In this document: in pieces, positions 2,103 through 7,482 of the stretch
Numbering within the stretch: position 1 is the stretch's first letter
Layout: the number at the start of each line of letters is the position of its first letter
IMG/VR virus record: IMGVR_UViG_2711768048_000004
Direction: 5' to 3' (one strand)
Source of the DNA: a virus
Lineage: Duplodnaviria; Heunggongvirae; Uroviricota; Caudoviricetes
DNA: 9,452 bases
Program-made: the position numbers and the translations under genes
Notes under the pieces: model-generated
Seen by the model: the letters and a program-made list of their open reading frames with translations, nothing else
Told to the model about the DNA's origin: nothing
Database searches by the model: none

Positions 2103-2636
2103 TTACTCCCTGACAGGGTTCGTAGGCCACTCAATATCAGGTGCAGTTGATGTATCAACACGGTTCAGCAACCCTTCCGGCTTATTAGCAGAATATGCTG
2201 GTGACGTATGAATCGTCACGCTGGCATTACTGGTATAATCCCATTGAATATTTACACCAGTCGCATAATTTCCGATTGCAACGTAAATATCGTAAGTATC
2301 ACCAGATGTATTGACCCAGGCAAAATTTGTAAACCCTGTCGATGTGCGCTGCCATAAAGCACCAGTAATCCCCTTCGGATTACCATTACCTGCACGCAAA
2401 ACAAGTTCAGATATACCTGCCTGTTGAGGTGACCCCACGTTAAATCCCGCGCCACCAATCAACGTAATTGAAACAACAGAACTCGCCTGTGGCATGGTTA
2501 CCGTTGCTAATTTGAACCAACCAGCACCACCGCTGAATGACATTGTTGTTGAGTTAAGCGTACCAATATCTTTCGGCGTCAGTGTTATATCCGCTGAAAG
2601 CGCCTTACCATTCACCTTACGGGCAGAAGGCATCAT
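2103..2636 (-). CDS. Phage tail fibre / tail-fibre-assembly family remnant (tfaD-like) with a lambda-Tfa-type C-terminus
   Basis: The N-terminal part (VNGKALSADITLTPKDIG, glycine-rich repeats GGAGWF, IGGAGFNVG) looks like a tail fibre or adhesin. The C-terminus (LLNRVDTSTAPDIEWPTNPVRE) matches the lambda Tfa C-terminus. The DNA at 2128-2175 is roughly 75-80 percent identical by eye to 1081-1125. Confidence 0.5.
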   Translation of the reverse strand: MMPSARKVNGKALSADITLTPKDIGTLNSTTMSFSGGAGWFKLATVTMPQASSVVSITLIGGAGFNVGSPQQAGISELVLRAGNGNPKGITGALWQRTSTGFTNFAWVNTSGDTYDIYVAIGNYATGVNIQWDYTSNASVTIHTSPAYSANKPEGLLNRVDTSTAPDIEWPTNPVRE

Positions 2637-2732
2637 TAACGGATAACGCCAGCGTCGCGGGTGCCTCTCCGGCAGTCAGGCTGTCACCGGACACCGCATC
2701 CGTCAGGCGGCTGATCCCAAGCTGGCCTGCAA

Positions 2733-2765
2733 GCGCACAAAAGAAAACCCGCGCATAGGCGGGTT
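2733..2765 (-). terminator. Rho-independent terminator on the minus strand
   Basis: Stem aaacccgc (2745-2752) / gcgggtt (2759-2765) with a 6-nt loop; on the minus strand it is followed by TTTTCTTTTGTG. Confidence 0.45.
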
Positions 2766-2791
2766 CAAGCATAAGCGGCTCATTAAAGGCC

Positions 2792-2959
2792 ATGCTGGCA
2801 ATATGCGGGAGATTTCCTAACCAAATGATTGAACAAATTAACATCGCTCTTGAGCAAAAAGGGTCCGGGAATTTCTCAGCCTGGGTCATTGAAGCCTGCC
2901 GTCGGAGGCTAACGTCAGAAAAGAGAGCATATACATCAATTAAAAGTGATGAAGAATGA
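2792..2959 (+). CDS. Small hypothetical protein, possibly ylcI-like (44-55 aa), with a ribbon-helix-helix-like motif
   Basis: Reading from the ATG at 2825 gives MIEQINIALEQKGSGNFSAWVIEACRRRLTSEKRAYTSIKSDEE, stop at 2957-2959; an in-frame ATG at 2792 is an alternative start. The RBS is weak and the ORF is below the 60 aa track cutoff. The assignment is from memory of a DLP12 small ORF in this position. Confidence 0.4.
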   Translation: MLAICGRFPNQMIEQINIALEQKGSGNFSAWVIEACRRRLTSEKRAYTSIKSDEE

Positions 2960-3123
2960 ACATCCCGCGTTCTTCCCTCCGAACAGGACGATATTGTAAA
3001 TTCACTTAATTACGAGGGCATTGCAGTAATTGAGTTGCAGTTTTACCACTTTCCTGACAGTGACAGACTGCGTGTTGGCTCTGTCACAGGTTAAGTAGTT
3101 TGAATGATTAGCAGTTATGGTGA

Positions 3124-3330
3124 TCAGTCAACCACCAGGGAATAATCCTTCATATTATTATCGTGCTTCACCAACGCTGCCTCAATTGCCCTGAATGCTT
3201 CCAGAGACACCTTATGTTCTATACATGCAATTACAACATCAGGGTAACTCATAGAAATGGTGCTATTAAGCATATTTTTTACACGAATCAGATCCACGGA
3301 GGGATCATCAGCAGATTGTTCTTTATTCAT
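3124..3330 (-). CDS. ybcW: Small uncharacterised prophage protein (ybcW-like, 68 aa)
   Basis: A 68 aa ORF with an ATG start and clean composition, sitting in the DLP12-like position divergent from the ybcV-like gene. Confidence 0.65.
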
Positions 3331-3615
3331 TTTGTCGCTCCATGCGCTTGCTCTTCATCTAGCGGTTAAAATATTACTTCAAATCTTTCTGTATGAAGGT
3401 TTGAGCACGTTGGCCTTACATACATCTGTCGGTTGTATTTCCCTCCAGAATGCCAGCAGGACCGCACTTTGTTACGCAACCAATACTATTAATTGAAAAC
3501 ATTCCTAATATTTGACATAAATCATCAACAAAACACAAAGAGGTCAGACCAGATTGAAGCGATAAAAACGATAATGCAAACTACGCGCCCTCGTATCACA
3601 TGGAAGGTTTTACCA

Positions 3616-4026
3616 ATGGCTCAGGTTGCCATTTTTAAAGAAATATTCGATCAAGTGCGAAAAGATTTAAACTGTGAATTGTTTTATTCTGAACTAAAAC
3701 GTCACAATGTCTCACATTATATTTACTATCTAGCCACAGATAATATTCACATTGTGTTAGAAAACGATAACACCGTGTTAATAAAAGGACTTAAAAAGGT
3801 TGTAAATGTTAAATTCTCAAGAAATACGCATCTTATAGAAACGTCCTATGATAGGTTGAAATCAAGAGAAATCACATTTCAGCAATACAGGGAAAATCTT
3901 GCTAAAGCAGGAGTTTTCCGATGGATTACAAATATCCACGAACATAAAAGATATTACTATACCTTTGATAATTCATTACTATTTACTGAGAGCATTCAGA
4001 ACACTACACAAATCTTTCCACGCTAA
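3616..4026 (+). CDS. ybcV: DUF1398-family protein (YbcV/YdfO-like), 136 aa
   Basis: The C-terminal region ([43 protein letters not shown]) matches the YdfO/YbcV family as recalled. The ATG at 3616 has a GGAAGG RBS 7 nt upstream. Alternative starts are the ATG at 3574 and the TTG at 3493 used by the ORF track. Confidence 0.7.
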
Positions 4027-4316
4027 ATCATAACGTCCGGTTTCTTCCGTGTCAGCACCGGGGTGTTGGCATAATACAATACATGTACGCGCTAAACCCT
4101 GTGTGCATCGTTTTTAATTATTCCCGGACACTCCCGCAGAGAAGTTCCCCGTCAGGGCTGTGGACATAGTTAATCCGGGAATACAATGACGATTCATCGC
4201 ACCTGGCATACATTAATAAATATTAACAATATGAAATTTCAACTCATTGTTTAGGGTTTGTTTAATTTTCTACACATACGATTCTGCGAACTTCAAAAAG
4301 CATCGGGAATAACACC

Positions 4317-4610
4317 ATGAAAAAAATGCTACTCGCTACTGCGCTGGCCCTGCTTATTACAGGATGTGCTCAACAGACATTTACTGTTCAAAACAAACAG
4401 ACAGCAGTAGCACCAAAGGAAACCATCACCCATCATTTCTTCGTTTCTGGAATTGGGCAGAAGAAAACTGTCGATGCAGCTAAAATTTGTGGCGGCGCAG
4501 AAAATGTTGTTAAAACAGAAACCCAGCAAACATTCGTAAATGGATTGCTCGGTTTTATTACTTTAGGCATTTATACTCCGCTGGAAGCGCGTGTGTATTG
4601 CTCAAAATAA
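4317..4610 (+). CDS. bor: Bor outer-membrane lipoprotein (serum-resistance protein of lambdoid phages)
   Basis: The 97 aa product is a near match to lambda Bor as recalled. It has a lipoprotein signal peptide with lipobox LITGC and is transcribed opposite to the lysis genes, as in lambda. Confidence 0.9.
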   Translation: MKKMLLATALALLITGCAQQTFTVQNKQTAVAPKETITHHFFVSGIGQKKTVDAAKICGGAENVVKTETQQTFVNGLLGFITLGIYTPLEARVYCSK

Positions 4611-4641
4611 TTGCATGAGTTGCCCATCGATATGGTCAGCT

Positions 4642-5103
4642 CTATCTGCACTGCTCATTAATATACTTCTGGGTTCCTTCCAGTTGTTTTTGCATAGTGA
4701 TCAGCCTCTCTCTGAGGGTGAAATAATCCCGTTCAGCGGTGTCTGCCAGTCGGGGGGAGGCTGCATTATCCACGCCGGAGGCCGTGGTGGCTTCACGCAC
4801 TGACTGACAGACTGCTTTGATGTGCAACCGACGACGACCAGCGGCAACATCATCACGCAGAGCATCATTTTCAGCTTTCGCATCAGCTAACTCCTTCGTG
4901 TATTTTGCATCGAGCGCAGCAACATCACGCTGACGCATCTGCATGTCAGTAATTGCCGCGTTCGCTAGCTTCAGTTCTCTGGCATTTTTGTCGCGCTGGA
5001 CTTTGTAGGCGATTGCGTTATCACGGTAATGATTGACCGCCCATGACAGGCTGACGATGATGCAGATAATCAGAGCGGATATAATCGCGGTTACTCTGCT
5101 CAC
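4642..5103 (-). CDS. Rz: Rz i-spanin (inner-membrane spanin subunit)
   Basis: Near-identical to lambda Rz as recalled ([10 protein letters not shown]...YINEQCR). The likely start is the GTG at 5103-5101, overlapping the endolysin stop (GTGA); the track start at 5115 is another upstream GTG. Confidence 0.9.
4701..4883 (-). CDS. Rz1: Rz1 o-spanin lipoprotein, embedded in the +1 frame of Rz
   Basis: The 60 aa product has a signal peptide with lipobox VVVGC and a proline-rich segment ([15 protein letters not shown]), near-identical to lambda Rz1. AGGAG RBS 7 nt upstream of the ATG. Confidence 0.85.
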
Positions 5104-5957: not shown

Positions 5958-6384
5958 AAGCTGTGTGACGAAGTAACCACTCTTAACAGCATAACCAATT
6001 TTTTACGTACGTAAACCACTAAATGATATTTGAGAGAATGCTACCGAGTATTGAAAACACCACTACAAATACATAAGCAAATCTCAACAAATAACCAAAA
6101 AATAATTTCCAGTGTTATTTTTAGCCGGTTTAAATTGAACCTTCAAATTATAGAGCACTTATAAATAACAGCCGTTAATATAAATTGGCTAATAGATTTA
6201 TTTTTATTCAGCCAAGAGCCATGAATAGGATTCGATAGAAAAAAGTTCAGATAAAAATAGAGATCTACTTCACAAATCAAACGAGAAACCAAAACTTACA
6301 TCTTGAAATAATCACATTGATTAGATGAATATTTATCGCGCAGTGACATCATTTTTTAATAATAGTTCAAAAAAAGGGCTCACG

Positions 6385-7482
6385 ATGAAAAAATTAACAG
6401 TGGCAATTTCTGCTGTAGCTGCATCAGTACTGATGGCGATGTCTGCTCAGGCAGCTGAAATTTATAATAAAGACAGTAACAAGCTGGATCTGTACGGGAA
6501 AGTTAATGCTAAGCACTACTTCTCCTCTAATGATGCAGATGATGGTGATACTACTTATGCCCGTCTTGGCTTCAAAGGTGAAACCCAAATCAACGATCAA
6601 CTGACTGGTTTCGGTCAGTGGGAATATGAATTCAAAGGCAACCGCGCTGAATCTCAAGGTTCCTCCAAAGATAAAACCCGTCTTGCCTTCGCTGGCCTGA
6701 AATTCGGTGACTACGGCTCCATCGATTACGGCCGTAACTACGGTGTAGCATACGACATCGGTGCGTGGACTGACGTCCTGCCAGAATTCGGTGGTGACAC
6801 TTGGACTCAAACCGACGTGTTCATGACTCAACGTGCAACTGGTGTTGCAACCTATCGTAACAACGACTTCTTTGGTCTGGTTGATGGTCTGAACTTTGCT
6901 GCTCAGTACCAAGGCAAAAACGATCGTAGCGATTTCGATAACTACACTGAAGGTAACGGTGATGGCTTCGGTTTCTCTGCTACCTATGAATACGAAGGAT
7001 TCGGTATCGGTGCAACTTATGCGAAATCTGATCGTACCGACACTCAAGTTAATGCAGGGAAAGTTCTTCCTGAAGTATTTGCTTCCGGTAAAAATGCAGA
7101 AGTTTGGGCCGCAGGTCTGAAATATGACGCTAACAACATTTACCTGGCCACTACCTATTCTGAAACCCAGAATATGACTGTATTTGCTGATCACTTCGTT
7201 GCTAATAAAGCCCAAAACTTCGAAGCTGTTGCACAATATCAGTTCGATTTCGGTCTGCGTCCGTCCGTTGCTTACCTGCAATCTAAAGGTAAGGATCTTG
7301 GAGTATGGGGCGATCAGGACTTAGTCAAATATGTTGATGTAGGTGCAACCTATTACTTCAACAAAAATATGTCTACTTTCGTTGATTACAAAATCAACCT
7401 GCTTGACAAAAATGACTTCACTAAAGCACTCGGTGTAAGCACTGATGACATCGTTGCTGTAGGTCTGGTTTACCAGTTCTAA
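6385..7482 (+). CDS. nmpC: OmpC-family general porin (NmpC / Lc / OmpD-like), phage-borne
   Basis: 365 aa with a classic Sec signal peptide ([23 protein letters not shown], cleavage after AQA), porin hallmarks ([15 protein letters not shown] start of mature protein, aromatic-rich beta strands, C-terminal ...VGLVYQF). It sits between Q and the holin on the opposite strand, as in DLP12 and PA-2. Confidence 0.9.

Follow-up and report, generated by a model that had tools for sequence, protein, structure and literature searches.

We found that ylcI, ybcW and ybcV, which lie side by side in a stretch of DNA of 9,452 nucleotides (IMG/VR record IMGVR_UViG_2711768048_000004, hereafter the window), are very probably three separate, already annotated accessory genes of a lambda-type right end that have been retained in the defective prophage DLP12, and not one system. 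All three are already catalogued, and ylcI is present here as a pseudogene-like remnant. Since they are named genes of K-12 and lambda, our analysis adds no new object. ylcI, p78 (ybcV) and p79 (ybcW) belong to the few lambda genes still uncharacterised, p79 has newly been reported as the trigger of an NAD-depleting defence system, ylcI is missing from the lambda reference annotation despite a perfect FNR box upstream, and lambda is the best-equipped phage model for the functions of these genes. The first-pass annotation had described the interval as a cluster of uncharacterised cargo genes, a description that overlooked both the identity with the lambda right end and the truncation of ylcI.

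The ORF list and megablast against complete E. coli genomes identified DLP12 as the home of the window. E. coli FDN-24 is 100% identical across the window, and K-12 MG1655 DNA is identical to it from base 2813 rightwards. Phage lambda 46369-48255 matches window positions 2813-4700 with 98.6% nucleotide identity, so that this interval is lambda's own right end, from Rz to cos. The gene order of the window is appY, tail-fibre remnants, a frameshifted methyltransferase, ylcI, ybcW, ybcV, bor and then rzpD/rzoD, followed by rrrD, essD, nmpC, quuD and rusA. Late phage transcription runs from right to left in the window, as the minus-strand position of the lysis genes shows. The position to which the genes had been assigned from sequence, with the lysis cassette on one side and the former structural genes on the other, was confirmed, as were their names (by family matches and by RefSeq annotation in FDN-24 and K-12) and the reading frames at 2792-2959 (plus strand, 55 aa), 3124-3330 (minus strand, 68 aa), 3493 or 3616 to 4026 (plus strand) and 4317-4610 (bor). 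An Rfam search of the window returned no matches, and no relevant repeat turned up in 2780-4320. The features are as follows.

2632-2812, minus strand: fragment of a gpC-like (S49 peptidase) N-terminus, a partial CDS in PGAP, on the left of the deletion junction
2792-2959, plus strand: ylcI', a 5'-truncated chimeric YlcI/YnfO gene (DUF3950) of 55 aa (Pfam DUF3950, 1.6e-20)
2960-3123, no strand: spacer of 164 bp between the convergent ylcI and ybcW, with no intrinsic terminator predicted
2977-4093, no strand: optional ybcW and ybcV cassette (in blastn with locus L046, homology ends at 2976 and resumes at 4094)
3124-3330, minus strand: ybcW, equal to lambdap79, 68 aa, pI 4.9, on the late-gene strand (PHROG 657, 7.5e-48)
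3331-3615, no strand: spacer between the divergent ybcW and ybcV, with an FNR-like box and a PdhR box
3616-4026, plus strand: ybcV, the lambdap78 counterpart, DUF1398, 136 aa (Pfam PF07166, 1e-46)
4317-4610, plus strand: bor, serum-resistance lipoprotein gene (Pfam Lambda_Bor, 1.4e-30; RefSeq)

The ylcI copy in the window is a truncated chimera. Identity to K-12 and lambda begins at 2813, 21 nt into the ORF (junction 2812/2813), and codons 1-7 derive from antisense gpC DNA; on the other side, window 2650-2814 is a 100% match to the boundary between genes annotated as S49 family peptidase and phage portal protein (lambda B/C) in lambdoid prophages. Placed on the lambda map, this corresponds to a deletion of approximately 4.7 kb that took with it Nu1, A, W and B, the 199 nt between the cos cut site and ylcI, and ylcI codons 1-16, and that left the rest of ylcI abutting the start of gene C in antisense. 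As a result the protein begins MLAICGRFPNQ... in the window and MSTKNRTRRTTTRNIRFPNQ... in K-12, its net charge drops from +5.5 to +0.5, and the conserved basic N-terminus MSTKNRTRRTTTRNI of full-length YlcI is missing. The window allele nevertheless scores 73.2 bits against Pfam DUF3950 (cut-off 25) and 32.3 bits against NCBIfam NF041551 (YlcI_YnfO_N; cut-off 30), the K-12 protein reaching 37.6 bits with the latter. The whole FNR-box and cos-proximal region upstream of ylcI is deleted, and a consensus scan found no promoter-like site upstream of ylcI'. We consider this copy most likely inactive, because it has lost its promoter, its start codon, its basic arm and half of the putative beta strand for DNA reading. 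As a counterpoint, ylcI' remains an open ORF that retains both predicted helices, and the product could have some activity. The junction occurs in 2 of 5,426 complete genomes (FDN-24 and FDN-9), and the exact 55-aa protein was present on 138 contigs of a larger collection, which makes it a marker of a small lineage.

The three genes are not conserved together. Across 5,426 complete E. coli genomes, ylcI occupies 8,076 places in 3,785 genomes (approximately 70% of the genomes), ybcV 3,823 places in 2,998 genomes and ybcW 2,136 places in 1,988 genomes, so that the copy numbers are nested (ylcI > ybcV > ybcW). The phage collection has 155 records with YlcI, among them Stx1a and Stx2c phages, 434 and mEp332, 43 with YbcV and 40 with YbcW. 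YbcV and YbcW occur together in 35 phage records, nearly all of them lambda derivatives, while YbcW without YbcV is found in PhiR63_1, HannyBb and mEp460, and YbcV without YbcW in ev099, Kati, Chlobot and PhiR42/49/70. Among 80 viral loci anchored on ylcI, approximately 41 contain all three genes and bor, approximately 32 have bor directly after ylcI (the short type) and 4 have ybcW alone, at 79% identity. Pairwise comparisons place the mosaic boundaries separately: short-type lambdoid prophages are without window 2977-4093, Qin is without 2928-3536, and a third type retains just 2978-3489. At Qin-type loci ynfO and ydfO occur without ybcW, which was the case in 71 of the 72 assessable viral loci anchored on YdfO. 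Conservation of the three-gene neighbourhood, which the first-pass annotation had proposed as a check, thus fails on unequal copy numbers, on separate mosaic boundaries and on the short-type and Qin-type layouts. With co-conservation missing, the idea of a three-gene module fails as well.

In the lambdoid contexts examined, ybcV or ydfO follows a same-strand ylcI or ynfO gene with one exception (L201), so that these two genes may be functionally linked. One reading is that ylcI and ybcV are a two-gene unit, an RHH regulator or antitoxin followed by an effector of approximately 136 aa, into which ybcW was inserted later. The tandem of ynfO and ydfO in Qin, separated by 57 nt and found in that layout in the 71 loci above, is in keeping with it, as are Kati- and ev099-type phages, where ylcI is followed after approximately 126 nt by a ybcV that is 78% identical; the sizes and order of the two genes also recall pairs of RHH antitoxin and toxin. 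However, the Qin-type loci are nearly clonal and therefore represent few independent observations. More than half of ylcI copies are without ybcV (8,076 versus 3,823 places), short-type prophages pass from ylcI to bor, and distant DUF1398 genes, namely ycgX (44%) and genes of Klebsiella (38%) and Salmonella (35%), stand without a DUF3950 neighbour. FDN-24 has an intact ybcV with a sole ylcI that is truncated and promoterless (one place in the record), which argues against an essential antitoxin, and lambda lysogens with ybcV::kan were obtained. We consider this two-gene unit unlikely. A type II toxin-antitoxin pair in particular was rejected, given that ybcW, in the opposite orientation, separates the two genes in this window, that lone DUF1398 genes exist and that ylcI is truncated in FDN-24.

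The RHH-like motif that had been assigned to YlcI is plausible in register and helices, and no significant sequence or fold match was found. The AlphaFold2 monomer (pLDDT 65.7, from a shallow alignment) has coil at 1-18 and helices at 19-32 and 34-52, that is, an unstructured basic N-terminus and two predicted helices joined by a K-G-S-G-N turn. In hhalign against Arc and Mnt, YlcI TRNIRFPNQMIEQINIALEQKGS falls on Arc QFNLRWPREVLDLVRKVAEENGR in the expected register, with E = 0.05 and a probability of 1%. The sole Foldseek match was the RHH antitoxin ParD2 (E = 8), and a lenient Pfam scan and a PDB profile search with YlcI returned nothing. These models suggest that YlcI, a small and very basic protein, is plausibly a ribbon-helix-helix protein that would bind DNA. 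A 41% tblastn match to YlcI in phage vB_KppS-Ant was disregarded, as it lies antisense within an annotated gene.

Lambda encodes the K-12 YlcI protein unchanged at complement(48109..48303), where the RefSeq lambda record annotates nothing. In both lambda and K-12, 199 nt separate the cos cut site from the start of ylcI. In an alignment of ten loci the block from cosN to ylcI is near-identical while the terminase-side sequence diverges completely, and the block is kept even where the small terminase gene is just 37-51% identical. A Nu1-type small terminase gene lies divergent from ylcI, approximately 930 bp off, in 80 of 80 viral contigs anchored on ylcI. This arrangement indicates that ylcI belongs to a cos-proximal block.

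A perfect FNR box, TTGATCTGCATCAA, is present at lambda 48364-48377 with its centre 67.5 nt 5' of the ylcI ATG. With GACAAT read as the -10 element, the box would be at approximately -41, which is class II spacing. FNR ChIP-chip found this site in both DLP12 and Qin (PMC1802558). In K-12 RNA-seq the transcripts of ybcW and ylcI are listed as converging and overlapping, which classes the pair as an excludon. It is conceivable, if quite improbable, that YlcI/YnfO is an overlooked lambda gene encoding an Arc-like repressor, expressed anaerobically from a class II FNR promoter, which heads the prophage-expressed strand and restrains ybcW by convergent transcription. The order on that strand would be ylcI, ybcV or ydfO, and bor, and transcription from ylcI into ybcW would curb leaky synthesis of a product that is sensed by Vulcan-like abortive-infection systems.

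The divergent arrangement of ybcW and ybcV is real, and the spacer between them is 285 bp. It had been called AT-rich with promoter-like elements, neither of which we found: its GC content is 40.0%, compared to 39.6% for ybcW and a window mean of 42.3%, the AT-rich piece being the ybcV gene itself (31.6% GC), and a consensus scan detected no sigma-70-like site in the spacer. Across 2600-4700, 3 sigma-70-like sites were observed versus 5.6 expected from shuffles. An FNR-like box, TTGACATAAATCAT, is located at 3512-3525 and a PdhR box at 3538-3554. The FNR-like box is an FNR ChIP-chip site (PMC1802558) and the PdhR box a PdhR SELEX site, and mRNA of both ybcV and ybcW is approximately 10-fold lower in a pdhR mutant (PMC7660256); the regulatory sites of the spacer are known from published experiments alone. 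Both mRNAs are elevated in microaerobic growth, and T4 MotB reportedly induces ybcV and ybcW more than 1000-fold in BL21(DE3). Because BL21(DE3) also has a lambda DE3 copy, the MotB effect is not assignable to DLP12 or to relief of H-NS.

YbcV covers the PF07166 profile from 1 to 119 of 119 and is a member of DUF1398; it matches the NMR structure of YdfO (PDB 2HH8) over residues 1-136 with E = 5e-71 and approximately 80% identity, and is 98.5% identical to the lambda protein. The ybcV start is best assigned to ATG 3616 rather than TTG 3493 because of the PGAP call, the extent of the 2HH8 alignment and Qin homology that begins at 3537. The lambdap78 annotation of the lambda reference, 177 aa, is too long. 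YbcV is basic (pI 9.2), has a maximum 19-residue hydropathy of 0.43, i.e., no membrane segment, and has no apparent signal sequence, and ybcV is transcribed against the late direction. The dN/dS of ybcV versus ydfO is 0.22, indicating purifying selection, and a genome-wide scan found YbcV in Escherichia and Shigella alone, besides lambda contamination in unrelated taxa, and added no further gene context. By CRISPRi, bor and p78, which are on the strand opposite to p79, were scored non-essential, lambda recombinants with ybcV::kan yielded kanamycin-resistant lysogens, and every lambda-DLP12 recombinant phage tested was active. The head and envelope protein labels that lambdap78 and PHROG 413 carry were rejected, as the protein has no membrane segment, its gene is oriented against late transcription and it is dispensable. 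As for when ylcI, ybcW and ybcV are expressed, we infer that YbcV would be a soluble, cytoplasmic protein made from the prophage under host control, because ybcV shares the anti-late orientation of bor and has its own upstream region that binds FNR and PdhR. In an intact phage, ybcW would be expressed during lytic growth from the Q-antiterminated late transcript that would run from the lysis genes across cos.

The YbcW protein is 100% identical to the product of lambda 47738-47941. It matches PHROG 657 over 1-68 of 68 residues, i.e., along the full length of the family, and no Pfam family. Structure prediction gives a generic three-helix bundle. The same stretch of lambda, of 3.5 kb, serves as the nanopore control amplicon and so contaminates many public assemblies and protein databases. 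The YbcW family has 199 representative matches, nearly all of which are frameshifted reads of lambda control DNA. The sole truly divergent relative (P0318) has 53% identity, and when used as a query for further YbcW homologues it returned itself alone. These searches suggest that YbcW is nearly confined to lambda-like coliphages. According to a preprint of September 2026, the Vulcan NADase defence responds to lambdap79 as its trigger from the phage, 7 of 7 lambda-vir mutants escaping Vulcan had lost lambdap79 via recombination with Qin, and co-expression of lambdap79 and Vulcan is toxic. p79 was scored essential (E) by CRISPRi, in a table that gives it as non-essential from earlier literature. 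We read this conflict as polarity: CRISPRi at p79 would block the late operon before the head genes are reached. Taken with the predicted fold, YbcW would be a dispensable, acidic, three-helix protein of 68 aa.

Triggers of abortive-infection systems are often phage inhibitors of host functions. YbcW might thus be a counter-defence or host-takeover effector that Vulcan detects for that reason, in which case ybcW would be the gene that matters functionally in the interval and the other two genes would be bystanders. A small protein with a pI of 4.9, encoded on the late strand, dispensable and reported to trigger an abortive-infection system would suit such a role, and its substitutions crowd into residues 1-16, with a dN/dS of 0.69 that comes from a single sequence pair. 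However, YbcW has no homology to any known anti-defence protein, its fold is a generic bundle and its family is very narrow, and defence triggers may equally lack a counter-defence role. We regard this effector role as rather doubtful, if worth keeping in mind.

It had also been suggested that the cluster is anti-phage or lysogenic-conversion cargo, which would guard the lysogen by, for example, superinfection exclusion. The genes do occupy an accessory-gene slot beside bor, the strand shared by ylcI, ybcV and bor is anti-late, an orientation typical of prophage-expressed genes, and host regulators bind upstream. The proteins are just 55-136 aa with no enzymatic or sensor domain, though, and each gene has its own pattern of gain and loss. 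In agreement with the earlier statement that no defence domain is recognisable, none of the PADLOC models matched: nothing was better than E = 0.001, and the matches were unrelated partial stretches. The sole functional report concerns YbcW (lambdap79) as a phage product that is sensed by host defence and triggers it, instead of a component of defence. A guarding role for the cluster is therefore very improbable, and we favour three separate accessory genes of a lambda-type right end.

The order of such a right end is Rz, bor, p78, p79, ylcI, cos. The window shares both order and orientation with the right end of lambda (bor, lambdap78, lambdap79 and the unannotated ORF at complement(48109..48303)), including bor on the same strand as its neighbours ylcI and ybcV. 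In contrast to lambda, the window is missing the last 247 bp (the 5' end of ylcI, cosQ and cosN) and the genes Nu1, A, W and B, with ylcI joined to a gpC fragment. The ynfO-ydfO pair of Qin has in common with the window DUF3950 and DUF1398 genes on one strand, and adjoins a Nu1-type terminase gene, as is the case for the lambda-type position, but differs in having no ybcW and a gap of 57 nt. YlcI resembles Arc and Mnt of phage P22 in its small size, its basic N-terminus, its NIRFP motif (NLRWP in Arc) and the two helices with a glycine-containing turn that follow; it differs in giving no significant sequence or fold match to them, and the window allele is also without the N-terminal half of the putative beta strand of an Arc-type RHH protein. 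K-12 DLP12 has YbcW and YbcV proteins identical to those of the window (UniProt YBCW_ECOLI and YBCV_ECOLI). Unlike the window, K-12 DLP12 has kept the full 64-aa ylcI, cos, nohD and a terminase fragment, and the window lineage has an internal deletion other than that of K-12 and an nmpC porin gene without an annotated IS5 beside it. Since the K-12 deletion differs and has spared cos, nohD and the terminase fragment, the two versions of DLP12 decayed independently.

In phage lambda (L003), the DNA beside the cos site contains a ylcI-like open reading frame (48109-48303) that carries no annotation in the lambda reference record. Two candidate regulatory elements lie ahead of it:

lambda 48364-48377, FNR box TTGATCTGCATCAA, a perfect match, 67.5 nt ahead of the ylcI-like ATG
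about lambda 48451-48467, palindrome TGATAATGATTATCA, flanked by cosQ and the FNR box

Only about 125 nt separate the cos cut site from the lambda FNR box, and the corresponding stretch of locus L002 is 3838-4147. The palindrome TGATAATGATTATCA was kept in all 10 of the aligned loci and resembles the consensus of a Fur box. In our reading of the sequence, the FNR box would have class II spacing relative to a GACAAT hexamer upstream of the ylcI-like open reading frame. FNR ChIP peaks have been reported at the ylcI-upstream site in both the DLP12 and Qin prophages (PMC1802558).

Exact copies of the lambda stretch that matches the ylcI, ybcW, and ybcV region recur in public databases as so-called plasmids or contigs of approximately 3.5 kb and as 48.5-kb contigs (loci L093-L130; plasmid matches H201-H214), under taxa that include Staphylococcus, Acinetobacter, Synechocystis, Pseudomonas, Kitasatospora, Flavobacterium, and others. 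Thousands of frameshifted variants in the protein match lists trace to the same stretch. These records look like contamination of public assemblies by lambda DNA used as a sequencing control, and such copies swamp homology searches for genes of this region.

Differences between ybcW of the window (3124-3330) and that of locus L009 cluster in residues 1-16 while the remainder is almost invariant, and the overall dN/dS, from one sequence pair only, is 0.69. The sole truly divergent YbcW relative is P0318 (locus L004, 273-464), with 53% identity. Its gene sits at the margin of a P4/PICI-like satellite island, not in a lambdoid phage, and this island contains an AlpA regulator, two DUF7828/zinc-ribbon genes, and a replication protein.

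The window contains two further features of the DLP12 relic:

1464-2048, class I SAM methyltransferase gene, which RefSeq annotates as frameshifted
4701-4883, rzoD, an Rz1-type lipoprotein open reading frame embedded within rzpD

The nmpC porin gene (6325-7482) has a 365-aa product in the window strain and no IS5 is annotated beside it in RefSeq, whereas in K-12 an IS5 is annotated directly after a slightly shorter porin gene. The window retains fragments of gpC and tail-fibre sequence (2103-2812) that DLP12 of K-12 lacks, while the K-12 version retains cos, nohD, and a terminase fragment, all three missing from the window copy. Since each version retains pieces missing from the other, the two arose by independent deletions from a fuller ancestor.
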